From the NCBI GenBank assembly GCA_036759345.1, contig DAIOUV010000001.1:29097-93096 (forward strand): DNA of 64,000 bases, written 5' to 3'. The notes below the pieces were generated by a model that was not told where the DNA came from, did no database searches, and was given only the letters and a program-made list of their open reading frames with translations. Positions 17,721-49,147 of this stretch are shown here, in pieces (the stretch's first letter is position 1; each line of letters opens with the position of its first letter). A program made the translations under genes and the position numbers. Source of the DNA: Acidobacteriota bacterium. Lineage in GTDB: Bacteria; Acidobacteriota; Thermoanaerobaculia; UBA5066.

Positions 17721-17738
17721 CCTCGGGAGTCTATCGGC

Positions 17739-18782
17739 CTAATCGTAGATGATCGACCCGGGGTCGAACCGGTCGCCCGTGTCCGGCCCGTTCCATTTTC
17801 CGTGGTTCAGATCGTAGTGCCAGCCGAAGGACGTGTACGGAAACCGGAAGTAGGTACCCAGCGCCAGCAAGGCCTTTCCCCACCATTTCTTCTCCGGCAC
17901 GCCCGCCGCGAGAAGCACCTCGCGCAGGTTCAGGCCGATCTCGACGCCGACGTTGCGCTCGCGGACGGGCGCGGCCGAGTAGCGGTAGCCCTTCGAGCCG
18001 TACGTCATCGAGAGAAGCAGGAAGCGCGCGGGCCCCGGCTCGAGGCCGAGACGCGGAAGAAAGCCGCTGAGCTTGAGATCGGCCGAGTAGATCTCCGTCG
18101 AGTAGTCGTCGCCGTAGCCGCCGTAGCGGCAGCACGCGTCGGGGATGAGCGTCTTCACGCGTCCGAAACGGAGTCCCACCGTGTCGTGCAGGCCCCACGC
18201 GTCGATCCCCGTCCCGAGGAGAGCGCCGATCGCGTTCGCGGTCTCGTCTTCCCACGAGAAGCCGTACTGCGAGAAGCCGTCTCCGGCCTCAATGAGAAGC
18301 CCCGTCACGACCGTCACGCCGAGGGCGAGGCCGCGGGCCTCGGCGGGCGTCTTGCCGAGCGACCGGTAGATGCCCTGAAGCGTGAGCGTCGAAATGTAGC
18401 CGAGGAAGATGTGCGACGCCTTGTCGGCGCCGCCGGCATACGTGTCCCTCTGGAACCAGCGCTCGTTCGCGAACTCGAAGCTCGAGCGGCTCGACGTACG
18501 CCACCAGGCGAAATAGCCGACCACGGGCGCGCCGAGGACGACGCTCGCCGTCACGATCTTCGTCTTCGTGTCGAAGAGCCGCGGAGGCGGCAGGGGGGCC
18601 GTCGTCGCAGGCGGGCCGACCGTCGCCCCGGCCGTCGCCGGCTCCTCCGCGAAGTAAAAGCCCGGGGCCGGAGAAAACGCGTCGCCCGGCCGCTCGAAGC
18701 CGAGGAGGCGCGCGTCGGCGGGGCGCGAGAGGGCTGCGAGGAGGAGGGCGGCGCCGGCCGCCCGGCGGGCCTGCGGCCTCAC
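17739..18782 (-). CDS. DUF2279/YfiM-like exported protein
   Basis: WFQRDTYAGGADKASH, EAGDGFSQYGFSWED and DDYSTEIY motifs. The GTG start overlaps the upstream stop (GTGA). Confidence 0.75.
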   Translation of the reverse strand: MRPQARRAAGAALLLAALSRPADARLLGFERPGDAFSPAPGFYFAEEPATAGATVGPPATTAPLPPPRLFDTKTKIVTASVVLGAPVVGYFAWWRTSSRSSFEFANERWFQRDTYAGGADKASHIFLGYISTLTLQGIYRSLGKTPAEARGLALGVTVVTGLLIEAGDGFSQYGFSWEDETANAIGALLGTGIDAWGLHDTVGLRFGRVKTLIPDACCRYGGYGDDYSTEIYSADLKLSGFLPRLGLEPGPARFLLLSMTYGSKGYRYSAAPVRERNVGVEIGLNLREVLLAAGVPEKKWWGKALLALGTYFRFPYTSFGWHYDLNHGKWNGPDTGDRFDPGSIIYD

Positions 18783-19414
18783 CCGGCGAGACCGCGGGTA
18801 CGGGCCAGCGCGCGCGTCTTCTCGAGAGCTTCCGAGACCTTCTTCTCGAGATCGTCGGCATCCCCGCGGAAGCTGCGCGAAAGCTCCGGGTCCGACACGC
18901 CCGGGAGATTGATCCGCACGTTCGCGAGCGCGCCGAGCGCGGCGCCGTGAAGGAGCAAGGCCGCGACCCACGCGTCGGACGCCGCATTCGGATTGCCCTT
19001 CTCGAATACGAGGGGCGCGACCTTCAGGCCCTCGTGCGCGAAAAAGGCCGTCTGCATCGGCACGGCGGTCGCGAGGACGTTCGCCGCGTCGATCGCGCGC
19101 TGGCGCGACACCTTGTCCGCATCGGACTCCTTCGGGAGCCGGCGCGCGGCCACGACCGCGTCGAATGCCTTCGTGTCCTCGTCCACGAGCTCCAGAAGCC
19201 TCAGCCGGGCTGCGTGCAGCCGATCGGCAAGCGGTTCGAGGTCTCCCCACGACGCGCGGTATTTCTCTTTTCCGAACGTGAGACCGACAACCATTTCGAG
19301 GAGCGAAGCACCGAACGCGCCGGCCGCCGCCGAAGCCGAGCCGCCGCCGGGAGCGGGGGCGTCGGACGCGAGGGACCCCGCGAATTCCGAGACGGAGAGA
19401 GCGCCGAGCGTCAT
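18779..19414 (-). CDS. Formiminotetrahydrofolate cyclodeaminase/cyclohydrolase family (FTCD_C)
   Basis: LASDAPAPGGGSASA, LVDEDTKAF, GNPNAASDA and NVRINL motifs. ATGA overlap with hutI. Confidence 0.9.
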   Translation of the reverse strand: MTLGALSVSEFAGSLASDAPAPGGGSASAAAGAFGASLLEMVVGLTFGKEKYRASWGDLEPLADRLHAARLRLLELVDEDTKAFDAVVAARRLPKESDADKVSRQRAIDAANVLATAVPMQTAFFAHEGLKVAPLVFEKGNPNAASDAWVAALLLHGAALGALANVRINLPGVSDPELSRSFRGDADDLEKKVSEALEKTRALARTRGLAG

Positions 19415-20703
19415 GATGCGCGCGAGCCTAGCAGGTCGCCGTGGGCGACCACGGGCTCTCCCGCAACGAGCACGTCGGAGACCAGGTTGACGCCCCAGTG
19501 GTAGACGAGGTGCTCGAGAGAGGGCGCGTCGAGGAGGACCACGTCGGCGCGCTTGCCCGGTTCGAGCGTGCCGCGGGTCCCGGCTTCCCGGACCGACGCG
19601 GCGGCGTTCAGCGTCATCGCCGTCAGCGTCTCCTCCACCGTGAGACCCATGCCTAAGGACGCCAGGAAGGCCACAGCCGGCAACGACTCGGTGTATGAGG
19701 AGCCGGGATTGCAGTCCGTCCCGAGCGCCACGGCGACGCCAGCGGACACCATTTTCCGCGCGGGGGCGTAACGGTTCATCCGCAGGAACACGGACGTGCC
19801 CGGAAGGAGCGTCGCCACGACGCCCGCCCTCGCCATATCCTCGATGCCCTCGTCCGTCGCGTAGAGGAGGTGGTCCGCCGAAGCGGCTCCCATTCGCGCC
19901 GCGAGCGAGGCGCCGCCGAGCGGTGTGAGCTCGTCGGCGTGGACGCGCGGGACAAGGCCGAGGACCTTGCCGGCCTCGAGGATCGCGGCCGATTCCTCGA
20001 GCGAGAAGACGCCTTCCTCGCAGAAGACGTCGACGAACCGCGCGCCGAGCGCCGCCAGCGCGGGAAGGATCTCGGCCCGACACTCGTCCACGTAACGCTG
20101 TTTGAGGGCGGCGGACCCGCGCCGCTCGGGCGGCACTTCGTGCGCGGGGAGCGCCGTCGGCGCGACGCCGACCGGATGCCCCTTCGCGCCCGCGAGGAGC
20201 GCGCGCAGCTGCTTGCTTTCGTTCGGGAGGTCGAGCCCGTAGCCTGTCTTCGCCTCACAGAACGTGGTGCCCGCGCGGAGCATGCGGTCGAGCCGCTTCC
20301 GCACGTTCCGCGCGAGCGTCTCCTCCGAGGCGGCCCGCGTCGCGGCGACGGTCGCGACGATCCCGCCTCCCAACGCCGCGATGCCCGTGTAGGTCTCCCC
20401 TTTCAGACGCCGGTTGAACTCGTCCTCGCGGAAGCCGTCCCATGGCAGATGCGTGTGCGCATCGACGAATCCGGGAACGGCCGTCCTGCCCCTGCCATCG
20501 AGGACCGACTCCTCGCGCGCCGGGGCCTCGCCGTAAAGCCGGACGAATTCCGCGTCGGACCCCGCGAAGACGATCAGCCCGTCCTCGGCGAGGAGCGCGG
20601 CGTCCCGGATCCGGCGCAGGACGCCCTGGGCGGCGCCGGCGCGGGCCGAGGCGCCCTCCGGCGTCGCCAGCTCGGCGAGATGCCGGATGGACAGCCGCTT
20701 CAG
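19411..20703 (-). CDS. hutI: Imidazolonepropionase; start inferred as CTG at 20703
   Basis: PGFVDAHTHL metal motif, GGGIVATV, EAKTGYGL, DVFCEEG, HADEL, SADHL and GTDCNPGS. The conserved N-terminus lies upstream of the first ATG/GTG/TTG (20373). Confidence 0.92.
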   Translation of the reverse strand: MKRLSIRHLAELATPEGASARAGAAQGVLRRIRDAALLAEDGLIVFAGSDAEFVRLYGEAPAREESVLDGRGRTAVPGFVDAHTHLPWDGFREDEFNRRLKGETYTGIAALGGGIVATVAATRAASEETLARNVRKRLDRMLRAGTTFCEAKTGYGLDLPNESKQLRALLAGAKGHPVGVAPTALPAHEVPPERRGSAALKQRYVDECRAEILPALAALGARFVDVFCEEGVFSLEESAAILEAGKVLGLVPRVHADELTPLGGASLAARMGAASADHLLYATDEGIEDMARAGVVATLLPGTSVFLRMNRYAPARKMVSAGVAVALGTDCNPGSSYTESLPAVAFLASLGMGLTVEETLTAMTLNAAASVREAGTRGTLEPGKRADVVLLDAPSLEHLVYHWGVNLVSDVLVAGEPVVAHGDLLGSRAS

Positions 20704-21215
20704 GCCGTCTCTCCCTCGCGCTTCTTCGGGCGGTGAATCGAGAGGGAGCTGTCCATCTCGTCCTCTTCCTTGTCGAAGTTGAGGACCTGCTGGAACAGGT
20801 CGATCGTGCTCTGGAGCTTCAGCTGGAAGTTCCGGCGCTCCATCCGGAGCTCGCGGATCTTCTTCTCCGTTTCGGCCATCCGTTCGAAGCCCTGCTGCAC
20901 CATGCGCTCGGCCTTCGTCTCGGCCTCCTTCACGATGCGACTCGCGTCCTTTTCGCTCGTCTCGCGGAGACTGTCGGCCGAGCGCTGGGCGAGGAGAAGC
21001 GTCTCTTTGAGCGTGGCCTCCGTGTCGCGGTGACGGGCGTTCTCTTCCCTTAGCCGCGCGTTCTCGCGCTCCAGCTCGTCGAGCTCGCGGGACATCTCTT
21101 CGAGGTCCTCGGCAAAAGCATCGAGGAAGTTCGTCACTTCGGCCGGGTCGAAGCCGCGAAAGCGCTTCGGGAACTGCCTCTTACGGATCTCGAGCGCGCT
21201 TATGGAGGGTCTCAT
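20700..21215 (-). CDS. divIVA: DivIVA-domain protein
   Basis: ISALEIRKRQFPKRFRGFDPAEVTNFLD N-terminus followed by a coiled coil. Confidence 0.88.
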   Translation of the reverse strand: MRPSISALEIRKRQFPKRFRGFDPAEVTNFLDAFAEDLEEMSRELDELERENARLREENARHRDTEATLKETLLLAQRSADSLRETSEKDASRIVKEAETKAERMVQQGFERMAETEKKIRELRMERRNFQLKLQSTIDLFQQVLNFDKEEDEMDSSLSIHRPKKREGETA

Positions 21216-21245
21216 GCGCTTGATTATGAACCCTTTGGGCTCAAT

Positions 21246-21920
21246 TCAATGGACGCGAAAGTCGCGCCCCGTATCGACGACCGTGAAGCGCCGACGCCGA
21301 AACGGGTTCCGGAGGCGCGGGAAGCGCGGCCCGCCGCCGCGGACGCCGCGAACGAAGAGCCACGACACCGGCAGGCCCCCGAGGACGAAGAGGAGACGCG
21401 GGAGCGAGCGGCTGCCTTCCAGCTCGCTGAACACGACGAAGACAAGGGCGAGGATGGCAAAACCCAACCGCGTCATGGGAAAGACACCGAAGAGAGAAAG
21501 AGTCTGAGAAGGTCCCTCGAGCATCCACGCGAAGATCAGCGCGAGAAGTGCCGGCGCAAAACCCGCGCCTCCTCCGACGACGAGACCGAGGAGGCCTGCG
21601 ACGACCGTAGCGAGTCCGAGGAAGATCGTGAATCGGCGCGATCCCCAGCGCGGTTCGATTTCGCTGCCGAGGCTCCAGATCATCAAGAGAGTGAAGAGAA
21701 CTCCCGTAATCGAGCCGTTGACGAAGGCATAGGTGACGAGCCGCCAGATCTGCCAAACGAACTCGGCGCCCGACAACAGAGCGAGCCAGAATACCGCCGG
21801 CGGCCACGCGAGCGTCAGGACGTAGCCGGCCGCGACGAGGACGAGCAGCGCACGCGTCACGGGGGGAATGCGCCGCCAGCCGGGAGGGCCCGCCCACCGC
21901 AGCCTGTACGCCGGCCTCAT
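21246..21920 (-). CDS. Rhomboid-fold membrane protein lacking recognisable catalytic residues
   Basis: PPVTRALL and QIWRLVTYAF (WR motif), LGSEIEPRWGSRRF. The expected GxSG and H/N positions are not conserved. Confidence 0.65.
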   Translation of the reverse strand: MRPAYRLRWAGPPGWRRIPPVTRALLVLVAAGYVLTLAWPPAVFWLALLSGAEFVWQIWRLVTYAFVNGSITGVLFTLLMIWSLGSEIEPRWGSRRFTIFLGLATVVAGLLGLVVGGGAGFAPALLALIFAWMLEGPSQTLSLFGVFPMTRLGFAILALVFVVFSELEGSRSLPRLLFVLGGLPVSWLFVRGVRGGGPRFPRLRNPFRRRRFTVVDTGRDFRVH

Positions 21921-38283: not shown

Positions 38284-40179
38284 TCAATCTGTCGGCGGGT
38301 CTCCCCGGCGTTCGGCCTCCAAGGCGAGGTCGATGAGCGCGTCGGCGAGGCGGGTGGCTCCTAAGGAATCCTCGCCGAGAGCCTCCGCGAAACGCGCGCG
38401 CACGCTCGCCTCGCGGGCCTCGTCGCGGATCGGGCGGCCCGAGGATTTCTTCACGGCGCCCACGAGGCGCGCGAGGTCGAGTCTGCGCGCGGCGAGCCGC
38501 GCGATGTCGCTGTCCACGCCGTCGATCGCGCGCCGGATCCTCTCCACCGAACCGCTCGCGCCGGGCAGGATTCCGAACTCGTCGAGGAGCTCCTCGAGGT
38601 CCTCGGGCAGAAGCGCCTGAGGCCCGTCGGAGAGCGCGGATTCGGGGGCATCGTGGACTTCGATCATGAGCCCGTCCACGCCCGCGCCCCACGCCGCGCG
38701 CGCGAGGCCCGGCACGAGATCGCGACGGCCCGCGGCGTGCGACGGATCCGCGAAGAGCGGGAGATGCGTGAGGGAGCGCGCGACCAGGAGGCCTCCGAGA
38801 TCGAGGGTGCCACGCGTCGCCTTCTCGAACGTGCGGATGCCGCGCTCGCACAGGATCACGTTCTTACAGCCCGCGTCGAGGAGGTACTCGGCCGAGGAAA
38901 GCCACTCTTCGACGGTCGTACCGAACCCGCGCTTCAGGAAGACGGGCCGCCCGCTCGCGCCCGCTTCCTTCAAGAGGTCGTAGTTCTGACAATTCCGGGC
39001 GCCGATCTGCAGCACGTCCGCGCGCGCGCCGACCGGACCGACCTGCGCGGGCGCCATGACCTCGGTCACGATGGGAAGACCGACCGCGTCGCCCGCCTCC
39101 TTCAGCCAGCCGAGGGCATCGAGGCCGTGTCCCTGAAACGAGTACGGCGACGTGCGGGGCTTGAAGACGCCGCCACGGAGAGCCGTGGCGCCCGCACGTG
39201 CGACGGCCCGCGCGAGGCGAAGGATCTGCTCGGGCGATTCGACGGCGCACGGGCCCGCGATCACGGCGCGCCGGCCGCCGCCGACGACGAAAGGCCCTAC
39301 GGCGACGACGCTCGGCTCGCGCACCTCGGTCACCTTCGGGATTTCCTTCATCCGCGGCGGGCGCACGAGCTCCGGGGCGGGCCCGAGCCACCGCACGCGC
39401 TCGCCCGCGGCGAGGCGTGCCGTTCCCGCGACCGCCCGGGCGACGCTTTTCTCGGGCACGACGGCGAACCCGCGCACCGGTTCCGCCGGCGTGCCCGGCA
39501 GCGAGAGCAGTTCCGCTTCGGCCTCGGCCAGAGCCGACGAAGCCCGGACTCCCGCGTAGAAGACCACGCGCGGCGCGAGGGACTCGGGCTCGGCCGCCCG
39601 GTCGAGCCGCCAGAAACGTGTCGCATTCGGGCGCACGTCCGAGACGTCCTCTTCGAGGATCAGGAGGCCCGCCTCGAGCGCCGCCTCCTCCGAGCACACA
39701 GCCGCCCGCGCCCCGCCGGCTTCCTTCACGCGGAACGCCGCATAGGCGGTGTCGTGCGTCTCGATCGGAATCGCGTCCAGGCGCGCGAGGAGATCGCGGC
39801 ACTGTCTAAGCGCCGCGGCCTGCGAGTGGACCTCACGTACGTCTTCGAGCGCAAGGCCCGGGGGAGCCGCGAGAACGAGCCTCACGGGCACCTCGATCTC
39901 CGCCCCGACGGTGACCCGTGACTCGGGTTGGGCGAGCGACCGGGCGAGCGCGTCGAGCGACTCGAGGATCGGCCCCTCGACGCGGTTCACCGCCGGCAGC
40001 ACCGCGCAGGCGATCTCTCCGGCGAGGAGCGCGCGCAGCATGCGCTCGAAGGTGGGGAAGGCGACCGGGCGGCCGCACCGCGCCGCCGCGCGGGCTCCGA
40101 ACGATCCCGGCTGCCCCTGATAGCCCGCGAGGACCGGCTCGTGCGTCGTCCCCCGTTCTTCCTCTTCGATCTCCGGCAT
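38284..40179 (-). CDS. Triple fusion: prephenate dehydratase-like / class I-beta DAHP synthase / chorismate mutase (AroQ)
   Basis: N-terminal GYQGQPGSF...NATRFW; middle [38 protein letters not shown]; C-terminal [27 protein letters not shown]. Confidence 0.88.
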
Positions 40180-40195: not shown

Positions 40196-41044
40196 CTACG
40201 GCCGCGAGGCGTCTGCCCGCGTCGAGGTCGGCTGTTTCGTGACCTTGGCGTCTTCCAGGACGACGGGGTACTGATAGCCCGCGCCGAAGTCCTTGTCGAC
40301 GTGAACGACGCCCTTCACGACCACGACGTCGCCGACGGCCGCCGGATCGCCGGTCGTCACCGTCAGGTCGTCGTCCTTCTTCTCGCGCGAGCCCGAACCG
40401 TCACGGATGTGGTACCAGTTCCGGCCCATGATCCCCGTGTTCGCCTTCACGACCTTGCCGCGCACCGTCACGGTCTTGTCTTTCAGTTGGGCGCGCTCGG
40501 CGAAGACCTGCGCCACCGTGCGCGCGTCCTTCCCTTCGGCCTTCGGGACCTTGACGTCTCCGGCGTCCGCCGGCCCGCCCGCTGCTGCGGCGTGCGGCGC
40601 GGCCATCGGCGCGCCCTTCGCTGCTTCGGCCGCGGCGCCGTGCGCCGAGATGGGCGCCGGAGGCGCGCCCGCCTTTCCGTCCCCGAGGCTGCCGAACACG
40701 ATGCGGTCGAACTTCCGGTTCAGCGTCTTGCTTTCGAAGCCGTCCATCGACATCGCGTTCACGACCGTGACGCTGTCGCCCTTCTTGACGTTCGCCTTCG
40801 TGATGGCGGCCCACGTTTCGCCGCCGCCTTCCGTCCTGAGGCGCATGTACGTGTAGTCGGAGGCGTCGAGCGTCTCCTCCACGATGCCCGCGACGCTCGT
40901 GAGGGCCGGCTGGGGCGCCTGAGGAACGGCGGCAGCCGCGGAAGCCGAGGACGTGGGAGCGGACGGGGCCGCGGCGGGAGCCGCGGGCTTCTGGCCGCAT
41001 GCGGCGGTGAGGGCGAGCGCGAGGACGAGAACGGTTCGGCGCAT
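40196..41044 (-). CDS. Lipoprotein with two OB-fold-like domains (NrfJ-like)
   Basis: Lipobox LTAA|C, then YTYMRL..ETWAA and [29 protein letters not shown] motifs. Confidence 0.65.
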
Positions 41045-41091: not shown

Positions 41092-41119
41092 AAAAAAGGC
41101 CGCCCGGGGAGGGCGGCCT
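41092..41119 (-). terminator. Rho-independent terminator ending the redox/GcvH-like operon
   Basis: Minus strand GGCCGCCC-TCCC-GGGCGGCC followed by TTTTTT. Confidence 0.8.
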
Positions 41120-41148
41120 TCGGATTCCGCGCCGCGGACCATCGGGGC

Positions 41149-41862
41149 TCAGGTCTCGAGGAAGGACGAAACGGCCAGTCGCCACTTTTCCTCGGACAGG
41201 AGAACCGACGGCGGCAGGATGAGTTCGCCGCCGTCCGCCGCGGCGAGCCCGAGCTCGCCCTCGAAAAAGCGCGAGAGACGCGCCTCCTCGCCGCGGAACC
41301 ACGCGTGTGCCTTGGGGCCGATCGGGAAGCTGCGATACGCCTCCGACGCCGGACGTACCGTGAACAGCCACCCCTTTTCGTACGGAGACGAACGGAGGAG
41401 TGTCGGGTGATTCCCGACGCGCGCGTTCACGGCCACGATCGTCCCGGTCACTGGAGCCGGAATGACGGCCGTGCGGGCGCCGCAGGCGATCGTCACGACG
41501 GGACGGCCGGCGGCGACCGTGCTGCCGGGCAGCGGCAGGGCGACGGCCGTGACGCCGTGCATGAGGTGCCCGGCGAGATCGTCGAGGCCCACGCGCAGGC
41601 GGCCGCCGCGCTCTTCGTCGAGCCACGTGTGCGCGGGCGCGTAGCGCCGGTTCTCGGCCAGGAGGAGCCCCTCGACTTCCACGAGTCCGAGGCGGCGCGC
41701 CCTCAGCCACCTGAAGGTGAGCTCCGCCGCGTGGTAGATCCCCCAGGCCGCGAGGACCGGCACGAGGGCGACGGCAACGAAGGCAACGAGAAGGAGGAGC
41801 CGGACGAGGAGGCCGACCATGAAGATGGCGGCTCCCGTAAGCAGCGCGAGGAGGGTTTCCAT
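41149..41862 (-). CDS. Membrane-anchored GcvH-like protein B, lipoyl lysine absent
   Basis: Long N-terminal hydrophobic segment; YAPAHTW, VGLDD, PAPVTGTIVAVN and PYEKGWLF motifs. The ESVK position reads ACGA. Confidence 0.85.
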   Translation of the reverse strand: METLLALLTGAAIFMVGLLVRLLLLVAFVAVALVPVLAAWGIYHAAELTFRWLRARRLGLVEVEGLLLAENRRYAPAHTWLDEERGGRLRVGLDDLAGHLMHGVTAVALPLPGSTVAAGRPVVTIACGARTAVIPAPVTGTIVAVNARVGNHPTLLRSSPYEKGWLFTVRPASEAYRSFPIGPKAHAWFRGEEARLSRFFEGELGLAAADGGELILPPSVLLSEEKWRLAVSSFLET

Positions 41863-41867
41863 GATGC

Positions 41868-42218
41868 TCACCTTTCTTTCGGTACCGCGTGACACGTCGC
41901 GCAGTCCTCGAATCCGTGGGCGCTCTTGCCGTCGTGGCATTTCCCGCACGCGGCGCCCTTTTCCATGTCGGCGTGCTTGAGCGTGCGGGCCGCGCGGGCC
42001 GCGGACGGAGGCAGGATGGAGAAGAGCGCCGGATGGCACGGCGTGCAGTCCGGCTTCGTCCCGTCGACGTGGGCCAGGTGGCGGAAGGTCACGACGCCCG
42101 GGCTGCCGTCTCCCTGAGGAAGAGGACGGTCCTTCGGAAGGCGGGGGAGACCGGTCGCGAGAACCGTGGCGGTCAACCCGAGCGTCAGGAGAAGGGCCGA
42201 CAGGTGGAGGTGTTTCAT
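41868..42218 (-). CDS. Triheme cytochrome c7-type protein
   Basis: Sec signal peptide; VTFRHLAH, CTPCH, LKHADM, CGKCH and CATCH motifs. Confidence 0.9.
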   Translation of the reverse strand: MKHLHLSALLLTLGLTATVLATGLPRLPKDRPLPQGDGSPGVVTFRHLAHVDGTKPDCTPCHPALFSILPPSAARAARTLKHADMEKGAACGKCHDGKSAHGFEDCATCHAVPKER

Positions 42219-42228
42219 GACGGCCGCC

Positions 42229-42894
42229 TCACTCTCCGCCCAGGAATCGGCGGGCCAGTTCGTCCCAGTGGTCCGGGTCGAGGGCTCGGGCGATGCCGTG
42301 GACCGGGGTGCCGCCATCTTGCAGGACCACTCCGAGTTGAGGCGTGAGGCGCTGGGCGAGCTTCCCCGCCGCGGCGTCCAGGAATCGGCGGGCGGCCTCG
42401 CCCGTGAAGAGGTTCTTGAGGTTGCCGGTCAGCCAGCGGGGCTCGACTTTCATGAGCCAGCCGGCGCCGTACGGGTCGCGGAGCGCATCGGCGGGATGCG
42501 CCCGCGCCGCTTCGTTCACCGCGACGACGTGGCCGTCGATCGGCGAGAGCACGTCGAGCCGCTGGCCTCCGGCCACGAGGGAGAAGGCCTTCTGTCCCTG
42601 CCGCACCGGCGCTCCGATCGGGGGCAGAAGGAGCTGGTCCAGGGGTCCCACGAGCTTGTGCGCGAAGTCGTCGAGGCCGACTTCCACCGTTCCCCCCTCG
42701 GGCCGCGCCCACGCGTGGCCGGCGTGCAGGTGGACGCCGTTCGGAACCTGGAACCAGCCGAAGCCGAAGGCGTGGACGGGCGCCTCCCCCTGGACGAAGC
42801 GCCAGAAAGGAATGAAGAGGAGCAGGTAGGAGATCGCGAGGCCGTACTCGAGGGCCCTCGCGGTATAGGGACTCAGGAGGGTGTGTTCGTTCAT
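42229..42894 (-). CDS. Membrane-anchored GcvH-like protein A, lipoyl lysine absent
   Basis: TM LEYGLAISYLLLFIPFWRF; HAGHAWA, VGLDDFA, SPIDGHVVAVN and DPYGAGWL motifs. The ESVK position reads VAGG. Confidence 0.85.
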   Translation of the reverse strand: MNEHTLLSPYTARALEYGLAISYLLLFIPFWRFVQGEAPVHAFGFGWFQVPNGVHLHAGHAWARPEGGTVEVGLDDFAHKLVGPLDQLLLPPIGAPVRQGQKAFSLVAGGQRLDVLSPIDGHVVAVNEAARAHPADALRDPYGAGWLMKVEPRWLTGNLKNLFTGEAARRFLDAAAGKLAQRLTPQLGVVLQDGGTPVHGIARALDPDHWDELARRFLGGE

Positions 42895-42922: not shown

Positions 42923-44152
42923 TCAATGCGCGCCGCGCCAGTCGGGGTGCTCGTGGACCACGGGCATGCGGTTCACGATCCAGCGGAAGATCAGGACGCC
43001 GATCGTCACGATCGTGAGCGACGTGACGACCTCACCCATGCTCGGGACGTAGCGGTCTTGGACGTTCCAGTTGAACGCGATGAGCGAGACGTTGAAGCGG
43101 TTGAGGACGACGCCGAGGACCGTGAGGAGACCGGCGAGCCGGGCCAGCCGCGCGTTCTGACGCCGCGCCGCGAATGCGAAGAGGAGCGACGGCAGGAGGA
43201 TGAAGCCCAGCATCTCGAGGAGGTACCAGGCCCCCCAACCGGTCGCGAGGAGGTCGAAACGGCCGCTCGCGACGAGGCCCTGCAGCCGGATGAAGAAGTA
43301 CGCGAAGAGGACGACCGCGCCGCCCTTCGCGAGCCCGAGCGTGATCTTGTCGAGATCGACCGGGGCCAGAGGGTCCAGCCGGTCATGGAAAGCGCGATGC
43401 GAAAGCGCGCTCTCGACGATCACCATGCCGATGCCCGCCGAAATGCTCGAGACGAAGAAGAAGATCGGGAGGAATGGCGAGTACCAGAGAGGGTGGAGCT
43501 TGCCCGGCGTCATCAGGAAGAAGGCGCCGAGGGAGGACTGGTGGAGCGTCGAGAGCGTGACGCCGAGGACGATGATGCCGATCGTCAAAGAGCCGAGGAG
43601 ACGGCGCACTTTCACGAGGCCGAGCCATTCGAGCGCGGCCGGCGCGAACTCGAGAGCGAGGACCATCAGGTACAGGAAGACGCACCAGCCGACCTCGTAC
43701 ATGACGGCGGTCGTGCCGGGCGTCAGGAAGAACTGATAGGGGAGGCGCCACGGCTGGCCAAGGTCCACGATGAGCCCGAACAGGACGAGGGCGTAGCCGA
43801 GGAAGCCGGTCAGGATCGCGGGGCGCAGGATCGGCCGGTAGGCCTTCTGGCCGAAGATGTAGACGGCGCAGGCGACCGTGTAGCCGCCCGCCGCGAGCGC
43901 GACGCCGCAGATGACGTCGAAGGCGACCCAGATGCCCCATGCGTTCGTCTGGGACAGGTTCGTCGCCGCGCCGAGCCCTTTCCAGAAGCGGAAAGCCATC
44001 GTCGGGATTCCGGCGAGGAGGATCGCCGCCGCGATCGCGTTGGCCGGCGTCAGGAGGCTTTTCGCGTATTCGCGGAAGGACATCCCGAGGAAGACGTTCT
44101 CCCTCATCCAGGGGCCCCCGAGGAACGCGGGTTTCAGCGCCTGCTCAGACAT
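42923..44152 (-). CDS. NrfD/PsrC-family polytopic membrane protein (HybB/HmcC-like)
   Basis: WGIWVAFDVICGVALAAGG, RPAILTGFLGY, DLGQPWR, YEVGWC, STLHQSSLG, KLHPLW and NRFNV motifs. Confidence 0.9.
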   Translation of the reverse strand: MSEQALKPAFLGGPWMRENVFLGMSFREYAKSLLTPANAIAAAILLAGIPTMAFRFWKGLGAATNLSQTNAWGIWVAFDVICGVALAAGGYTVACAVYIFGQKAYRPILRPAILTGFLGYALVLFGLIVDLGQPWRLPYQFFLTPGTTAVMYEVGWCVFLYLMVLALEFAPAALEWLGLVKVRRLLGSLTIGIIVLGVTLSTLHQSSLGAFFLMTPGKLHPLWYSPFLPIFFFVSSISAGIGMVIVESALSHRAFHDRLDPLAPVDLDKITLGLAKGGAVVLFAYFFIRLQGLVASGRFDLLATGWGAWYLLEMLGFILLPSLLFAFAARRQNARLARLAGLLTVLGVVLNRFNVSLIAFNWNVQDRYVPSMGEVVTSLTIVTIGVLIFRWIVNRMPVVHEHPDWRGAH

Positions 44153-45056
44153 GGCCTTCCTCCTGCTTTCCGTTGCCTTCCGCCGCCGCGACTTCGTCGC
44201 GGCGCTTGCTGAAGGTGTACATGCCCATCAGGAGCGGCGGCCAGAGGGTGATGATGAAGGGCACCGCCGAGAGCGCACCGTCGGCGAGCTCCGGATACGA
44301 CTTCTTCTCGATGCCGGCGGGAAGCGCGAGCGACTCGAACGGCACGTCGGAGATGTAGAGCCAGCTCGTGCCTCCGGCTTCGTTTTCTCCGTAGATCTCG
44401 TGGACGTACTTGTCGGGGTTCGTGTAGATCCGCGTCCTGGCCTCCTCGAGGAGGTCGGCGCGTCTGCCGAACTTAAGAGCGCCCGACGGGCAGACCTCGG
44501 TGCAGGCCGGCGCGAGACCCTTGCCCTGGCGCTCCGCGCAGAAGGTGCACTTCTTGACGAGCGGCGTCGCGCTCGAGAACTCGTACTTCGGAACTCCGAA
44601 GGGGCACACGATCATGCAGTAGCGGCAGCCAAGACAGCGGTCCGCGTGGTACACGACCGGCCCTTCGGGCGTCTTCTCGAGGGCCTTGACGACGCAGCCC
44701 GAAGCGCAGGCCGGCGTCACGCAGTGCATGCACTGCGTCTTGGCATAGCGGTCGTCGCCGCTCGCGCTCTTGCGTTCGCCCTTCTGGACGACCGTGTAGG
44801 CCGTGGGGCTCGTCGTGCGCTTCGACGCGAACACGGAGTCGTCCCCGGGTTTCTCGGGGCCCAGGAGCGCGTTCGCCTCGGCGCAGGCGGCCTCGCAGCC
44901 GCGGCAACCGACGCAGCGCGTCGTGTCCACGAGGACGCCCCGGGCGTCCTTCGACGCGGGCAGGACCGAGGCCCGCGACGTCGCCGCCGCGCCGGCTACT
45001 CCGGCGGTTCCGGCGGCGGCGGCGAGCTTGAAGAGAGACCGGCGATTCAGCTTCAT
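44145..45056 (-). CDS. Tat-exported 4x[4Fe-4S] protein with C-terminal membrane anchor (HybA/HmcB-like)
   Basis: NRRSLFK twin-arginine signal; CVGCRGCEAAC, CMHCVTPACASGC, CLGCRYCMIVC and CTFC..PACTEVC; C-terminal hydrophobic helix. Confidence 0.92.
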   Translation of the reverse strand: MKLNRRSLFKLAAAAGTAGVAGAAATSRASVLPASKDARGVLVDTTRCVGCRGCEAACAEANALLGPEKPGDDSVFASKRTTSPTAYTVVQKGERKSASGDDRYAKTQCMHCVTPACASGCVVKALEKTPEGPVVYHADRCLGCRYCMIVCPFGVPKYEFSSATPLVKKCTFCAERQGKGLAPACTEVCPSGALKFGRRADLLEEARTRIYTNPDKYVHEIYGENEAGGTSWLYISDVPFESLALPAGIEKKSYPELADGALSAVPFIITLWPPLLMGMYTFSKRRDEVAAAEGNGKQEEGHV

Positions 45057-45067
45057 CGCGGCCTCTC

Positions 45068-45154
45068 TCAGGCCCGGGCCGCGCGGCCGAGCGCGCGGTC
45101 GTTGAGGAGGAGGAGAAGAACGAAGAGGAGCGCGAGGGGAACCGTGGCGATCAT
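45068..45154 (-). CDS. 28-aa single-pass membrane peptide MIATVPLALLFVLLLLLNDRALGRAARA
   Basis: GGAGG RBS, ATGA overlap with the upstream stop, hydrophobic core with basic tail; ends 11 nt before the Fe-S gene start. Confidence 0.6.
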   Translation of the reverse strand: MIATVPLALLFVLLLLLNDRALGRAARA

Positions 45155-45390
45155 GGGGCCTCCCTCCCGGAGCCGTTCGCCGCCACGGCGGGCGGCTCCG
45201 TGTACGCGGCGCCCGTCCCGAGCCTCTTCACGGCCTCCTGATAGAGGGGGCAGTCCCCGTACCGGTTCGCCTGGCAGGGCCGGACCGACACGAGGTGGTC
45301 AAGAGGCAGCATCTTTTTCGTCGGGCAGGCGTCGCAATAAAGCATCACGACTTCTTTGAGCAGCGGGCAGGTGGTCGAGGTCTCTCGCAT
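45151..45390 (-). CDS. 79-aa Cys-rich protein
   Basis: MRETSTTCPLLKEVVMLYCDACPTKKMLP...PCQANRYGDCPLY has 5 Cys. It is the first ORF after the sigma54 promoter. Confidence 0.7.
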   Translation of the reverse strand: MRETSTTCPLLKEVVMLYCDACPTKKMLPLDHLVSVRPCQANRYGDCPLYQEAVKRLGTGAAYTEPPAVAANGSGREAP

Positions 45391-45406
45391 GGCGACTCGT
45401 CTAAGC

Positions 45407-45421
45407 GCAAGGCCCGCGCCA
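45407..45421 (-). promoter_or_regulatory. sigma54 (-24/-12) promoter
   Basis: Minus strand TGGCGCG-GGCC-TTGC, one mismatch from TGGCACG-N4-TTGC. It lies directly downstream of a sigma54 activator gene. Confidence 0.85.
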
Positions 45422-45550: not shown

Positions 45551-46921
45551 CTAGTCGGGCTCGAAAACGCCGTCGTCCGCGCGTTTCAGCCCGAATTTGT
45601 GGATCTTGCTGTAGAGGGTCACGCGGTCGATGTCGAGGATCCGCGCCGCCTGCGAGACGTTTCCACCCGTGTTCCTAAGCACCGCGGCGATGTGCTGCCG
45701 TTCGATCTCGGCGAGCGAGGCGGGATGCGACGGGATTTCCTCCCCGCGAAGGGTGAGGCCCAGATCGCCCGGCAGGAGGAGCGGCCCCGTCGAAACGACG
45801 ACGCCTCGCTCGAGGACGTTGCGCAGTTCGCGCACGTTGCCCGGCCACGAGTGGGCGAGGAGAAGCGCCATGCCCTCGGGCGACACGCCCTCGACCGGCT
45901 TCTTCATTTCCACGGCGAGCTGCTCGAGCAGGATGTCGACGAGAAGGGGGATGTCCTCCTTGCGGTCGCGGAGCGGAGCGAGCGTGAGCGTGATGACGTT
46001 CAGCCGATAGAAGAGATCCTCCCGGAAGCGGCCCTCGGCAATGGCCTTCTGAAGGTCCCGGTTCGTCGCCGCGATGATGCGGACGTCCACCGGTATCGAT
46101 TCCGTCCCGCCAACGCGCGTCACCCGGCGCTCCTCGAGGACGCGCAGGAGGTCGAGCTGCAGCTTCGGGCTGATGTCGCCGATCTCGTCGAGGAAGAGGG
46201 TGCCGCCGCTCGCCGCCACGAACTTGCCCTCGCGGCGCCCGTTGGCGCCCGTGAAGGAGCCCTTTTCGTAGCCGAAGAGCTCGGATTCGAGAAGCGTCTC
46301 GGTGAGGGACGCGCACGACATCGCCACGAAGGGTTTGTCGTGGCGCGGGCTCTCGGCATGGATGGCGCGGGCGAGAAGCTCCTTGCCCGTGCCGCTCTCG
46401 CCGAGGACGAGGATCGTCGAGGGGCTGCGCGCGGCGGTCCGCGCGAGCTCGAGCGTGCCCTGCATGGCCGACGACTTCGTGACGAGGTCGTGGAACCGGT
46501 ACTCGCGTTTGAGCGCCTTGCGGAGGATCACGTTCTCCCTCACGAGCGCCTGCTGCGCCACGATCTTCTCCACCAGGAGGCTGACCTCCTCCGGGTCGAA
46601 GGGCTTCACGATGTAGTCGAACGCCCCGAGCTTCATGGCGTTCACCGCGGTGTCGACGGTGGCGTACGCCGTCATGATCACGACGGCGGTCTCGGGGCTC
46701 TTCTCCTTGACGCGCTTGAGCACTTCGAGGCCGTCGATGCCCGGCATCTTGAGGTCGACGAGGAGGATCGACCAGCGCCCCTCCTCCACGGCCTTCACGC
46801 CCGCGAGGCCGTCCGGCGCCGTGCCGATCGTGTAGCCGTCCTTCTCGAGCCAGCCCGAGAGGGACTCCCGCACGATCTCCTCGTCATCGACCAGCAGGAT
46901 CCGCGTGTTCTTCTTGCTCAT
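45551..46921 (-). CDS. sigma54-dependent response regulator (NtrC/AtoC type)
   Basis: Receiver (LLVDD, VDLKMP), GESGTGKE, GSFTGA, LFLDEI, WPGNVREL and Fis-type HTH. Confidence 0.96.
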   Translation of the reverse strand: MSKKNTRILLVDDEEIVRESLSGWLEKDGYTIGTAPDGLAGVKAVEEGRWSILLVDLKMPGIDGLEVLKRVKEKSPETAVVIMTAYATVDTAVNAMKLGAFDYIVKPFDPEEVSLLVEKIVAQQALVRENVILRKALKREYRFHDLVTKSSAMQGTLELARTAARSPSTILVLGESGTGKELLARAIHAESPRHDKPFVAMSCASLTETLLESELFGYEKGSFTGANGRREGKFVAASGGTLFLDEIGDISPKLQLDLLRVLEERRVTRVGGTESIPVDVRIIAATNRDLQKAIAEGRFREDLFYRLNVITLTLAPLRDRKEDIPLLVDILLEQLAVEMKKPVEGVSPEGMALLLAHSWPGNVRELRNVLERGVVVSTGPLLLPGDLGLTLRGEEIPSHPASLAEIERQHIAAVLRNTGGNVSQAARILDIDRVTLYSKIHKFGLKRADDGVFEPD

Positions 46922-47468
46922 GGGGTTCTCCGATCTCGTCGACGTTCTCGAGGAAGAGGGCCCGGCACGTCTCGCAGAGGTCCGGCTGCTTGGCGTCCAC
47001 GTCCCGAAGGCTCGCCGAGCGCGCCATCGCGCAGCGGGGGCGGAGGCAGTGAAGGAGCCCGAACGTGTGCCCGAGCTCGTGGATGACTTCGGTCCGGAGG
47101 CGGATCGGGAGCCGGGCCGCCTCGCCGGGAAGCCCCGCGCCGACAAGGCGCGCGGTCGACACGACGGCGGCAGGGCCCTTGAGCTGCGCCTCGCCAAAGA
47201 CGAACGTCAAGACCGGGATGAAGAGGTCCGCGTCCGTCAGGCCGATCAGGCGCGCGGCGCCGCGCGGCCGGTTCGCCGCGAGCCACAGGAGGATGCGACG
47301 GGAGGAATGCTGTTTGCGCCGCGCGTCGTACGCCTCGTCCGGCCGGGTCGCGGGGACGTCGAGGCGCACCGGCAAGCGGAAGACTTTCTGCACGTGAGCG
47401 CGCACGCCTGCGAGAAGCTCCGGGTCGATGTTTCCCGTCCCGATCCACCACAGGGCGACCTCGCTCAC
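46884..47468 (-). CDS. Archaemetzincin-family Zn metalloprotease
   Basis: LFIPVLTFVFGEAQL, VVSTARL and HELGHTFGLLHC-x4-C-x-M...CETC motifs. The GTG start overlaps the kinase stop. Confidence 0.9.
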   Translation of the reverse strand: MSEVALWWIGTGNIDPELLAGVRAHVQKVFRLPVRLDVPATRPDEAYDARRKQHSSRRILLWLAANRPRGAARLIGLTDADLFIPVLTFVFGEAQLKGPAAVVSTARLVGAGLPGEAARLPIRLRTEVIHELGHTFGLLHCLRPRCAMARSASLRDVDAKQPDLCETCRALFLENVDEIGEPHEQEEHADPAGR

Positions 47469-49147
47469 GTGCCCGCGGTCGGCCCGGCGACCGCGGGGGC
47501 CGCCGAGGCCGCGCCGCCCTCGGCGGCGAGGGGGAGCCGGAGCGTCATCGTCGTACCCTGCCCGGCGCTGCTCGTAACCCGCATCGAGCCGCCGTGCTTT
47601 TCCACGATGCCGTAGACGACGGAGAGCCCGAGCCCGGTGCCTTTCTCCTTCGTCGTGAAGAACGGGTCGAAGATGCGCGAGAGAAGATCGGGCGCAATTC
47701 CGGCGCCCGTGTCGGTGACACCGATGTCGACCTCGCGACTGCCGGAGAAGAAGTGGGAGGTGAGCGTCAGGGTGCCGCCGGCGGGCATCGCGTCGCACGC
47801 GTTCAAGAGGATGTTCATGAACGCCTGCCGGAGCTGCCCGAAATCGGCGTTCACCTGACCCGTGCCCTCGAATCTCCTGACGACCGTGATGCCCTGGATC
47901 TGCATCTTGTGCGCCGCGAGCGAGAGCGCCTCCTCGAGCGCGCGCACCGGGTCGAAGACTTTCAGCTCCAGCGGCCTGACCCGCGCGAAGTCGAGGAGGT
48001 TCCTCACGATGACGGTGCAGCGCTCGGACTCCCTCTGGATGAGCGACAGGTTCTTGAGGCACGCCGCGCGCGTCGCGTCGTCCGGCGGGCCGGTCTCCAG
48101 CATCCGGATCATGAGCCGCGCGAACGTGAGGATCCCCGCGAGGGGATTGTTGATCTCGTGCGCGATGGAGGCCGAGAGCTGGCCGAGCGAGGCCAGCTTC
48201 TCGCTGCGGGCGAGGACCTCGTGAGCGCTTCGGAGCGCCGCCGTGCGGTCCTCCACCTGACGTTCGAGATCGTTCGTGAGGTGCTCGAGGTCGCGGCGCG
48301 TCCGGGCGAGCGACGCGTTCATCTCGTTGAACGAGTTCGCCAGGATTCCGAGCTCGTCCGACGAGCGGACGGCGAGCGTCGCCGACAGGTCGCCGTGGCC
48401 GACGCGCTGCGTGGCCTCCACGAGCTCCGCCACGGGGCGAAAGACGATGCGGCGCGCCGCGGCACTGACGAGAGCGGCGAGAACGATCACCGCGCCGAGC
48501 GCGCCGCCCGCCATGCGCAGGGACTGCCTGTGCAGGCTCGCGTCGATCTCCTTCAGCGAAATGCCGATGTCGACGACGCCGAGGACGTGCTTTTCGGGCG
48601 GGTGAGCGTGGCAGGCGGCCGTCGAGCAGGCAGGCTCGTTGTAGATGGGCGTCACCATGCCCAGCACGCGGTGGCCGTTCGTGCGGAACAGGCGGCTGCG
48701 CGCGGACGTCGTGGGCGCCACGATCGGCTGGCCCGCCGCGTGGCACGCCGTGCAGGCCTCGGCATCCTTGTCGACCGACGCGCCGATGTCGCGCGCGTTC
48801 GTCGAGAACATGATGCGGCCTTCCTTGTTCAGGACGCGGACCTTCTCGATGCCCTCGAGGCGGCCGATGCTCTCCATGATCCGGTACGCGTCGTGCCGCT
48901 GGTCCTCGAGCATGAGATCCCGCGTGCTGCTCGCGATCGTGCTCGAGAAAAGCGCGGCCCCGCGGATGACCTCTCCGATGGAATGCTCCCTCTGGGAGCG
49001 GATCGAGAGAAACGCGAACAGCGCAATCGTCGCGAGCGAGACCGCCGCCGCGGCGCCCGTCAGCTTGAAACCCAGATGCCGGTGGAACGGGATGCCGAAC
49101 ACGGCTTCCTCCAGCCTGAGCATCCGGCAACCCGGGGGACAGTCCAT
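47465..49147 (-). CDS. Sensor histidine kinase with periplasmic heme-c-motif sensor, HAMP, HisKA and HATPase domains (start 49147 or 49123)
   Basis: Two TMs flanking CTACH (48740-48754) and CSTAACH (48608-48628); AHEINNPL H-box; DTGAGI, FDPFFTTK and GTGLGL boxes. Confidence 0.93.
   Translation of the reverse strand: MDCPPGCRMLRLEEAVFGIPFHRHLGFKLTGAAAAVSLATIALFAFLSIRSQREHSIGEVIRGAALFSSTIASSTRDLMLEDQRHDAYRIMESIGRLEGIEKVRVLNKEGRIMFSTNARDIGASVDKDAEACTACHAAGQPIVAPTTSARSRLFRTNGHRVLGMVTPIYNEPACSTAACHAHPPEKHVLGVVDIGISLKEIDASLHRQSLRMAGGALGAVIVLAALVSAAARRIVFRPVAELVEATQRVGHGDLSATLAVRSSDELGILANSFNEMNASLARTRRDLEHLTNDLERQVEDRTAALRSAHEVLARSEKLASLGQLSASIAHEINNPLAGILTFARLMIRMLETGPPDDATRAACLKNLSLIQRESERCTVIVRNLLDFARVRPLELKVFDPVRALEEALSLAAHKMQIQGITVVRRFEGTGQVNADFGQLRQAFMNILLNACDAMPAGGTLTLTSHFFSGSREVDIGVTDTGAGIAPDLLSRIFDPFFTTKEKGTGLGLSVVYGIVEKHGGSMRVTSSAGQGTTMTLRLPLAAEGGAASAAPAVAGPTAGT

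Follow-up and report, generated by a model that had tools for sequence, protein, structure and literature searches.

GcvH, the H-protein of glycine cleavage, is a soluble protein of ~130 aa that carries a lipoyl lysine and works with the P, T and L proteins. Proteins with the GcvH fold have also been recruited outside glycine cleavage, as exemplified by LbpA in sHdr sulfur oxidation and by GcvH-L, which is linked to SirTM and a macrodomain (PMC6067878). Both are soluble and depend on a lipoylated lysine. Barrel-sandwich domains that lack the lysine are found in the N-terminal domains of RnfC and NqrA and in membrane-fusion proteins, where they act as structural or docking elements without a cofactor; efflux adaptors employ them in a periplasmic adaptor role. 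NrfD-type complexes, which are central to anaerobic respiration, include the Hmc complex, with its 16-haem cytochrome HmcA, and the HybA/HybB pair of Hyd-2. A review of NrfD-type complexes lists no cytoplasmic GcvH-like subunit (PMC8076601). In this study, we analyzed two GcvH-like proteins, designated A and B, encoded beside an NrfD-family gene in a 64,000-nucleotide stretch of DNA from an acidobacterial genome, referred to in its entirety as the window.

The span 41149-42894 comprises three genes, since a triheme cytochrome gene lies between those of A and B:

42229..42894, minus strand: GcvH-like protein A, 221 aa (ORF, Pfam match, family alignment)
41868..42218, minus strand: triheme c7-type cytochrome, 116 aa; Sec-type signal peptide; CxxCH motifs CTPCH, CGKCH and CATCH
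41149..41862, minus strand: GcvH-like protein B, 237 aa (ORF, Pfam, alignment, model)

The open reading frame of B covers 41149-42039; its start was placed at the ATG at 41862, which is preceded by a Shine-Dalgarno sequence and agrees with the family alignment, giving 237 aa. Protein A consists of a short N-tail, a conserved membrane helix at approximately residues 14-34 with invariant E16, Y17, F27, P29, F30, W31 and R32, a GcvH core at approximately 47-165, and a tail bearing QDGG (192-195), W210 and F217-L218. Protein B begins with a long hydrophobic helix (helix 2-58 in the model) and a basic stretch, RWLRARR, followed by a GcvH core (60-171) and a helical tail (182-235) that bears W227, F234-L235 and, in an exposed loop, AAADGG (D210-G212). 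Both proteins match Pfam GCV_H (PF01597) well over its threshold of 22.2 bits, with E-values of 8.3e-17 for A and 5.5e-20 for B. Against the GcvH equivalog TIGR00527 they score 53.8 and 58.6 bits, respectively, far under the cut-off of 115.85; their scores are likewise under the cut-offs of NF045810 (GcvH_rel_desulf; 31.6 and 41.8 bits, cut-off 150) and TIGR03077 (not_gcvH; 30.2 and 27.7 bits, cut-off 144). A and B are real paralogous genes, and a decayed or pseudogene GcvH was ruled out because both families are conserved across phyla.

Each protein retains the complete GcvH fold. Both families keep the structural motifs HxW, G-D-D, PV-G-V-N and PY-GW, and the AlphaFold2 model of B (pLDDT 96.2) superposes on the E. 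coli and Thermus thermophilus H-proteins in Foldseek with target TM-scores of 0.88-0.91 and an rmsd of 1.2-1.7 A over ~123 columns, with 32% identity to the E. coli protein; 5a35 is one of its fold matches. For A, the single-sequence model (pLDDT 38) was useless, and the fold assignment rests on sequence. Profile matches were confined to GcvH and weakly scoring lipoyl/biotinyl domains, and no similarity to the RnfC, NqrA or membrane-fusion domains was detected. Those domains are of the short biotinyl/lipoyl type and lack the C-terminal tail described below, whereas A and B are full GcvH folds.

The C-terminal extension that the sequence-only reading had noticed in both proteins (DGG...W..FL) proved to be homologous. 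An hhalign comparison of the two family profiles gave a probability of 99.96 across 179 columns, including the shared tail of ~55 residues. DGG is invariant in 84/84 sequences, the tail Trp is invariant in both family alignments and the Phe is nearly so; in the wider superfamily, DGG is replaced by DGA or DGR. In the model of B, DGG occupies the sole lower-confidence loop, and the ~25 residues after it form well-packed helices. The tail has no sequence match in the PDB.

The same reading had reported that the lipoyl lysine is replaced by Gly in A and by Ala in B, and that observation holds. In gapless phmmer alignments to solved H-proteins, the lysine faces Gly110 of A (VAGGQRLD) and Ala129 of B (ACGARTAV), no Lys occurs anywhere in either hairpin, and none is present in the lipoyl hairpin of the superposed model of B. 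Among 79 A-family sequences, the column contains G (41), S (12), D (8), A (6), E (5), H (3) and no K. In the 53 B-family sequences, drawn from 80 genome loci and a search of representatives, G (20), A (14), K (5) and D (3) were counted; among 84 cluster representatives, G (35), D (13), A (7) and R (7) prevail and K falls outside the seven commonest residues. These alignments show the loss to be a family-level property rather than a local accident, and A and B are best read as non-lipoylated proteins.

Conventional swinging arms that carry lipoate or biotin on a non-canonical lysine would accord with the public records, which name relatives of A and B "glycine cleavage system H / lipoate-binding protein". 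They would also accord with a Lys at +1 from the canonical site in 30/79 A-family members, a count that speaks against the non-lipoylated reading, and with the canonical Lys in 5/53 of the B family. We nevertheless consider such an arm extremely improbable, as relatives mostly carry Gly, Ala, Asp or Ser at the site and the hairpins of A and B themselves offer no acceptor. A shift of the lysine by a single position reportedly abolishes lipoylation, according to the lipoyl-domain mutagenesis of Wallis and Perham in 1994, which weighs against the +1 residue. The operon also contains no lipoate ligase, gcvT or gcvP. Likewise, no sHdr genes, SirTM, macrodomain or LplA2 were found in the operon or related loci, and A and B differ from LbpA and GcvH-L in being membrane-anchored and devoid of the lysine.

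Hydrophobic N-terminal helices followed by basic stretches were confirmed in both proteins. The K+R counts on the C-side and the N-side of the helix are 3.9 and 0 in B (51/51 sequences) and 2.2 and 0.15 in A, where 29/33 sequences obey the positive-inside rule. A and B are thus predicted to be single-pass proteins whose N-terminus is outside and whose GcvH part lies in the cytoplasm. Natural fusions of the GcvH-like/DGG-tail module support this topology, as the module is joined to a receiver domain plus a four-cysteine (Cys4) protein (P0250), to Cys4 alone (L079), to an acetyl-CoA-synthetase-like (ACS-like) enzyme (L069), and to cytoplasmic Fer2/Fer4 Fe-S domains in a NuoE/F-like operon (L092). 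A link to acetate activation was dropped, the ACS-like fusion occurring in just 1/80 loci. These observations bear on the alternative that the GcvH-like domains are periplasmic, like the lipoyl domains of membrane-fusion proteins, and bridge the cytochrome and the Fe-S protein. Every recognizable redox partner in the operon is indeed periplasmic, and efflux adaptors provide a precedent for lysine-less barrel-sandwich domains. The charge distribution is the opposite of what such a placement requires in all 51 B sequences and 29 of 33 A sequences, the fusion partners (receiver, ACS-like and Fe-S domains) are cytoplasmic, and the Cys4 partner has no signal peptide; we therefore regard a periplasmic location as very improbable.

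A and B belong to one sigma-54 operon, running from the Cys4 gene to that of B, that is conserved across several bacterial phyla; the genes for the regulator, the archaemetzincin and the kinase lie upstream of it. The remaining features of the locus, from the terminator to the sensor kinase, are as follows:

41095..41121, minus strand: terminator-like hairpin, 11 bp with 8 G-C pairs, then a T-run
42923..44152, minus strand: HmcC/HybB-type NrfD-family membrane subunit, 409 aa (Pfam NrfD, NCBIfam)
44145..45056, minus strand: HmcB/HybA-type Fe-S protein, 303 aa (Pfam Fer4_11)
45068..45154, minus strand: unannotated 28-codon ORF, MIATVPLALLFVLLLLLNDRALGRAARA, a single hydrophobic helix
45151..45390, minus strand: Cys4 mini-protein with an invariant C-x10-C-x19-C-x7-C motif
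45406..45421, minus strand: sigma-54 type -24/-12 promoter element, TGGCGCGGGCCTTGCG
45551..46921, minus strand: NtrC-type response regulator (REC, sigma-54 activator AAA+, HTH_8)
46884..47468, minus strand: archaemetzincin (Peptidase_M54), HELGHTFGLLHC...C..C
47465..49147, minus strand: sensor histidine kinase with CxxCH and Cx4CH motifs

Most of 80 loci, from Acidobacteriota, Anaeromyxobacter, Methylomirabilis, Nitrospinota and other groups, share the order kinase, sigma-54 regulator, Cys4, HmcB, HmcC, A, c7, B; the cytochrome is missing from variants in Syntrophus and in Deferrimicrobia MAGs. As a single match within the window, the -24/-12 element is not above chance, and the case for it rests on its presence at the same place in 42/48 related loci. 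The hairpin lies 28 nt past the stop codon of B and marks the operon end. The downstream lipoprotein gene (40196-41044) was excluded, since it lies beyond this terminator and only close relatives have it. The ATG of the micro-ORF overlaps the Cys4 stop codon (ATGA), and a comparable hydrophobic micro-ORF occurs in 36/47 loci. Searches of Pfam, NCBIfam and the PDB gave no match for the Cys4 protein. The archaemetzincin gene has a GTG start overlapping the kinase stop codon, and its product has no signal peptide by eye. In the kinase, the CxxCH and Cx4CH motifs lie 42 residues apart in a loop between two membrane helices, a putative haem-c sensor. The Cys4 protein, the micro-peptide, the archaemetzincin and the haem-motif kinase are conserved partners beyond those in the sequence-only reading. 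A defence role was dropped after a PADLOC scan found nothing.

The closest described counterparts of the redox genes are those of the Hmc complex. The Fe-S protein matches HmcB best (349.8 bits, below the cut-off of 420), with HybA next, and the NrfD subunit matches HmcC best (512.9 bits, below the cut-off of 550), with HybB next. The HybB proton-path residues R89, Y99, E148 and H184, taken from PMC8076601, are conserved in the NrfD subunit. As in other NrfD-type quinone-reactive modules, a four-cluster ferredoxin-type subunit adjoins the NrfD-family subunit; its twin-arginine signal (NRRSLFK) and C-terminal membrane helix, both identified by eye, indicate that it should be periplasmic. In contrast to the Hmc complex, the triheme c7 stands in the place of HmcA, and, compared with Hmc and Hyd-2, the locus lacks the HmcE cytochrome b, the HdrD-like HmcF and hydrogenase genes. 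From promoter to terminator, no cytochrome-b-type, CCG-domain or HdrD-like gene was found. Relative to Hmc and the HybA/HybB pair, the operon adds two GcvH-like proteins, the Cys4 protein and the micro-peptide. GcvH, by comparison, is not membrane-anchored, has neither the extra tail nor the DGG loop, and is not set in a respiratory-type operon of Fe-S, NrfD and cytochrome genes without gcvT or gcvP neighbours. A literature search on GcvH-like proteins with NrfD/HmcC-type genes or membranes returned no description of this arrangement; the operon is widespread and, as far as the literature found goes, previously undescribed.

The suggestion that A and B form a heterodimer gains support from natural tandem GcvH-like fusions (P0211 and P0184), the former lying directly behind Fer4 and NrfD genes. 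A and B therefore probably form a pair, and an adaptor function is a reasonable inference. Four-cysteine motifs precede or accompany the GcvH-like module in every context seen. Together with the Fer2/Fer4 fusions in the NuoE/F-like operon, this recurrence would suit a different role, in which the GcvH cavity or hairpin and a metal or Fe-S centre on Cys4 bind another prosthetic group or ligand and shuttle sulfur or electrons in the manner of LbpA. A conserved Arg in B (R130) and a basic residue in A, directly after the former lysine site, fit the same idea. Such a carrier appears quite improbable, however, given that the operon contains no haem b or other transmembrane path for electrons from the periplasmic Fe-S protein to the cytoplasm, and that no known Fe-S or zinc protein is detectably related to Cys4. 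The former lipoyl hairpin is moreover the least conserved part of A (0.43, against 0.69 for the membrane helix, the highest). The Cys two residues before the site in B, once proposed as redox-active, is not a conserved family feature, being present in 28/53 B orthologues and 20/84 representatives.

The reading toward which we lean, with modest confidence, assigns A and B, as accessory subunits without lipoate on the cytoplasmic side, to a cytochrome/quinone module that faces the periplasm. The sigma-54-controlled membrane complex would have a redox core composed of the triheme c7, the Tat-exported HmcB-type Fe-S protein and the HmcC/HybB-type NrfD subunit, the last of which would react with quinone and move protons. 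The strongly conserved membrane helices may hold A and B against the NrfD subunit, and A, B and the Cys4 mini-protein, whose binding to A and B is suggested by the gene fusions, would probably cap the cytoplasmic face in a pseudo-symmetric arrangement. The H-protein fold would thereby serve as a protein-interaction or regulatory scaffold rather than a swinging-arm carrier, possibly controlling the cytoplasmic proton half-channel or coupling the complex to the kinase, regulator and archaemetzincin. Because NrfD subunits carry no cofactor, it is not obvious what redox task such a cap would perform. Copies of the module are also found outside NrfD contexts, solo in Anaeromyxobacter and in soluble NuoE/F-like operons, which points to a function broader than that of an NrfD accessory.

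A purely structural role leaves the recurrent archaemetzincin linkage unexplained. Peptidase_M54 lies between kinase and regulator in 53 loci and also beside GcvH-like proteins with the tail in other contexts (L081, L084/L085, L088, L092, L029). These pairings, along with the invariance of DGG, its location in the one lower-confidence loop of B and the existence of the receiver-Cys4-GcvH-like fusion, point to an alternative in which A and B are substrates or partners of the protease within a signalling or proteolysis module, with the exposed loop as the site that the protease recognizes or processes. Cutting there, or in the receiver-fused variants a binding step controlled by phosphorylation, would then act back on the sigma-54 regulator or turn the complex on and off. 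We consider this unlikely, although not negligible: the conserved, well-packed residues after DGG do not resemble a propeptide that is thrown away, DGA or DGR takes the place of DGG in the wider superfamily, and cleavage of A or B is hypothetical, the archaemetzincin papers found naming no substrates. A broader proposal, which we hold to be rather unlikely, is that the GcvH-like/DGG proteins, the four-cysteine partner and the archaemetzincin make up an unrecognized cytoplasmic control module under a haem-sensing sigma-54 two-component system. Such a module would plug into different Fe-S machines, membrane-bound and of HmcBC type here and soluble and of NuoE/F type elsewhere; the exposed DGG loop would be the target of the protease or would gate the NrfD proton channel.

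On the favoured reading, that of non-lipoylated accessory subunits, hundreds of database entries bearing the H-protein/lipoate-binding label cannot be lipoate carriers, and metabolic reconstructions that count them as GcvH would be wrong at these points in Acidobacteriota, Anaeromyxobacter and other soil and sediment anaerobes. Since the review cited above lists none, A and B would represent a new subunit class for NrfD-type complexes, and where they sit could matter for the use or control of the cytoplasmic proton half-channel. Cultivated Anaeromyxobacter species offer experimental access. The biological role of the archaemetzincin family is described as little known (PMC3427221), and its recurrent pairing with these proteins provides a concrete starting point, open to testing, for working out what this protease family does; if the control-module proposal were true, A and B would be the first physiological substrate or partner for archaemetzincins.

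The span 41149-42894 carries three minus-strand genes, where the sequence-only reading had counted two: those of A and B, two membrane-anchored GcvH-like paralogues, and that of c7, a triheme cytochrome. They belong to a transcription unit in the order -24/-12 element, Cys4 (a four-cysteine mini-protein), 28-codon ORF, Fe-S protein (HmcB/HybA-like), NrfD subunit (HmcC/HybB-like), A, c7, B and terminator-like hairpin. Upstream lie three regulatory genes, encoding a histidine kinase, an archaemetzincin and an NtrC-type regulator.

Features of the transcription unit and its upstream genes
47465-49147, minus: histidine kinase; sensor loop with CxxCH and Cx4CH motifs, 42 residues apart
46884-47468, minus: archaemetzincin (Peptidase_M54), between the kinase and regulator genes and overlapping both
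45406-45421, minus: sigma-54 type -24/-12 element, by sequence match and conserved position
45151-45390, minus: Cys4, the operon's first gene; C-x10-C-x19-C-x7-C, four cysteines invariant
45068-45154, minus: unannotated 28-codon ORF; single hydrophobic helix, translationally coupled to the Cys4 gene (ATGA)
42229-42894, minus: GcvH-like A, 221 aa; Shine-Dalgarno-like sequence present
41868-42218, minus: triheme c7 cytochrome; Shine-Dalgarno-like sequence present
41149-41862, minus: GcvH-like B, 237 aa
41095-41121, minus: strong terminator-like hairpin closing the unit after B

The window has a G+C content of about 69%, and the genomes most closely related to it belong to Thermoanaerobaculia (Acidobacteriota), where the protein identity of A is 94%. 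The start of B was assigned to the ATG at 41862, which is preceded by AAGGTGA and at which orthologues begin; the mechanical ORF reaches 42039. Within the window, a lone match to the -24/-12 element does not exceed chance expectation, and the position of the element is kept in 42 of 48 loci. Pfam, NCBIfam and PDB contain no relatives of Cys4, and a hydrophobic micro-ORF comparable to that at 45068-45154 occurs in 36/47 loci, across phyla. Past the terminator, a lipoprotein gene (40196-41044, minus), kept in close relatives only, weakly matches an OB-fold stress-protein family, and a 631-aa ORF (38284-40179, minus) resembles, by eye, fused prephenate dehydratase, DAHP synthase and chorismate mutase segments.

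A genome scan with A yielded 347 relatives, from which 80 loci were kept, representing Thermoanaerobaculia, Holophagales, Vicinamibacterales, Anaeromyxobacter (several copies per genome), Methylomirabilis, Nitrospinota, Syntrophus, Syntrophorhabdus, Deferrimicrobia and Eisenbacteria. In the majority of these loci, the genes run kinase, regulator, small protein, HmcB-like, HmcC-like, A, c7, B. Some variant loci lack the cytochrome, some place a GcvH-like gene ahead of the Fe-S gene, and others encode two GcvH-like domains in one protein immediately after the Fer4 and NrfD genes. Anaeromyxobacter also carries solo A-type genes outside any Fe-S/NrfD operon (loci L029, L034, L039, L047, L050, L051, L056, L066, L068 and L076), L029 having two such copies and an M54-like gene.

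A and B comfortably exceed the Pfam GCV_H threshold and lie far under the NCBI GcvH equivalog cut-off. In gapless alignments, the lipoyl lysine of solved H-proteins falls on Gly110 of A and Ala129 of B, bearing out the earlier claim that this residue is missing. Lysine occupies the column in none of 79 A-type sequences and in 5 of 53 B-type sequences (34 others have Gly or Ala), and Gly or Asp predominates there in 84 sequences that represent 50%-identity clusters. Judged from these alignments, absence of the lipoyl lysine is a property of the family, and residual lipoylation of A or B is unlikely. Within A, conservation is lowest in the hairpin (0.43) and highest in the membrane helix (0.69). 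The superposition rests on B, modeled with very high confidence from 83 cluster representatives (pLDDT 96.2), since the single-sequence model of A was unusable. Superposition of the B domain on the H-proteins of E. coli and T. thermophilus gives a target TM-score of 0.88–0.91 and an rmsd of 1.2–1.7 Å; the GcvH fold is therefore intact, with the lysine alone lost.

The C-terminal extension absent from GcvH, proposed earlier to be common to both proteins, is indeed homologous in the two (hhalign probability 99.96 across 179 columns), with its DGG invariant in 84/84 sequences and no PDB counterpart by sequence or fold. In the B model, it forms helices at 182-204, 218-221 and 224-235; the AAADGG stretch is a connecting loop and the sole region with lowered confidence.

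The GcvH-like domains very probably face the cytoplasm, as first proposed, because basic residues follow the helix and natural fusions, an independent line of support, join such domains to cytoplasmic ones. The helix has 3.9 lysines plus arginines on its C-side against 0 on its N-side in B (51/51 sequences), the corresponding counts for A being 2.2 and 0.15; a periplasmic adaptor role, on the side that the redox parts would face, is unlikely. The module of GcvH-like domain and DGG tail is fused to a receiver domain and a Cys4 motif in the related protein P0250, to a Cys4 motif only at L079:3246-4022, and to 2Fe-2S/4Fe-4S domains in a NuoE/F-like operon. In a single locus, inside a variant operon (L069:8581-11058, 825 aa), a GcvH-like domain whose tail reads QDGR is joined to an entire acetyl-CoA-synthetase-like enzyme (ACAS_N, AMP-binding, AMP-binding_C).

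The Fe-S protein has, as read by eye, a twin-arginine signal and a C-terminal helix, and the NrfD subunit retains HybB residues reported to be important for proton transfer (PMC8076601). The recognizable redox parts most likely constitute a periplasm-facing cytochrome c:quinone module of the Hmc/Hyb/Qrc type. NrfD subunits lack cofactors, which leaves electrons no route to the cytoplasm through the operon's gene set and makes a redox-carrier role for A, B and Cys4 unlikely here. The proposed redox-active Cys before the site in B finds no support as a trait of the family, the residue being present in only 28/53 orthologues. The sensor loop of the kinase resembles a haem-c redox sensor on the periplasmic side; its CxxCH/Cx4CH pair is kept in 40/46 orthologues, and it weakly matches the Mcp40H-20_sensor family.

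The archaemetzincin gene is kept in 53 related loci and also adjoins GcvH-like proteins with the tail in unrelated contexts (L081, L084/L085, L088, L092 and L029). In L092, a soluble operon (16190-21265, minus) contains the gene for a fusion between a Fer2/Fer4 protein and a lysine-less GcvH-like domain with an SDGG tail, along with genes for another GcvH-like protein, which has two C-x13-C-x5-C-x2-C motifs, and for NuoE-like and NuoF-like proteins, followed by kinase, regulator and archaemetzincin genes; a 611-aa alpha-domain and GcvH-like protein (L092:10001-11836) is convergent with this array. An accessory role in the NrfD complex does not account for the archaemetzincin genes that accompany these proteins in places with no NrfD gene in the vicinity, nor for the presence of the module on soluble NuoE/F-type Fe-S operons. 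Both observations point to a broader function, perhaps regulated proteolysis, or recognition, at the invariant loop, which we rank as the main rival to the accessory role.

Public records label A/B-type proteins as glycine cleavage H or lipoate-binding proteins. They use the GcvH scaffold, yet the tests that define GcvH, LbpA, GcvH-L and two curated GcvH-related families exclude them. Hmc and Hyb are the systems closest to the window operon, which falls outside Hmc by its membership tests. Neither full-text literature searches nor a dedicated NrfD review (PMC8076601) yielded a description of GcvH-like subunits in NrfD-type complexes. The DGG module together with archaemetzincin may, with modest probability, represent something novel in itself.

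The evidence best supports A and B as accessory subunits that carry no lipoate. Specific helix packing would anchor them to the NrfD subunit; tandem fusions suggest that they pair with each other, and the Cys4 fusions that they bind Cys4. The three would cap the complex on its cytoplasmic side, in a structural or regulatory capacity. As the receiver-fused variant suggests, phosphorylation may control the attachment or activity of the module in some lineages.
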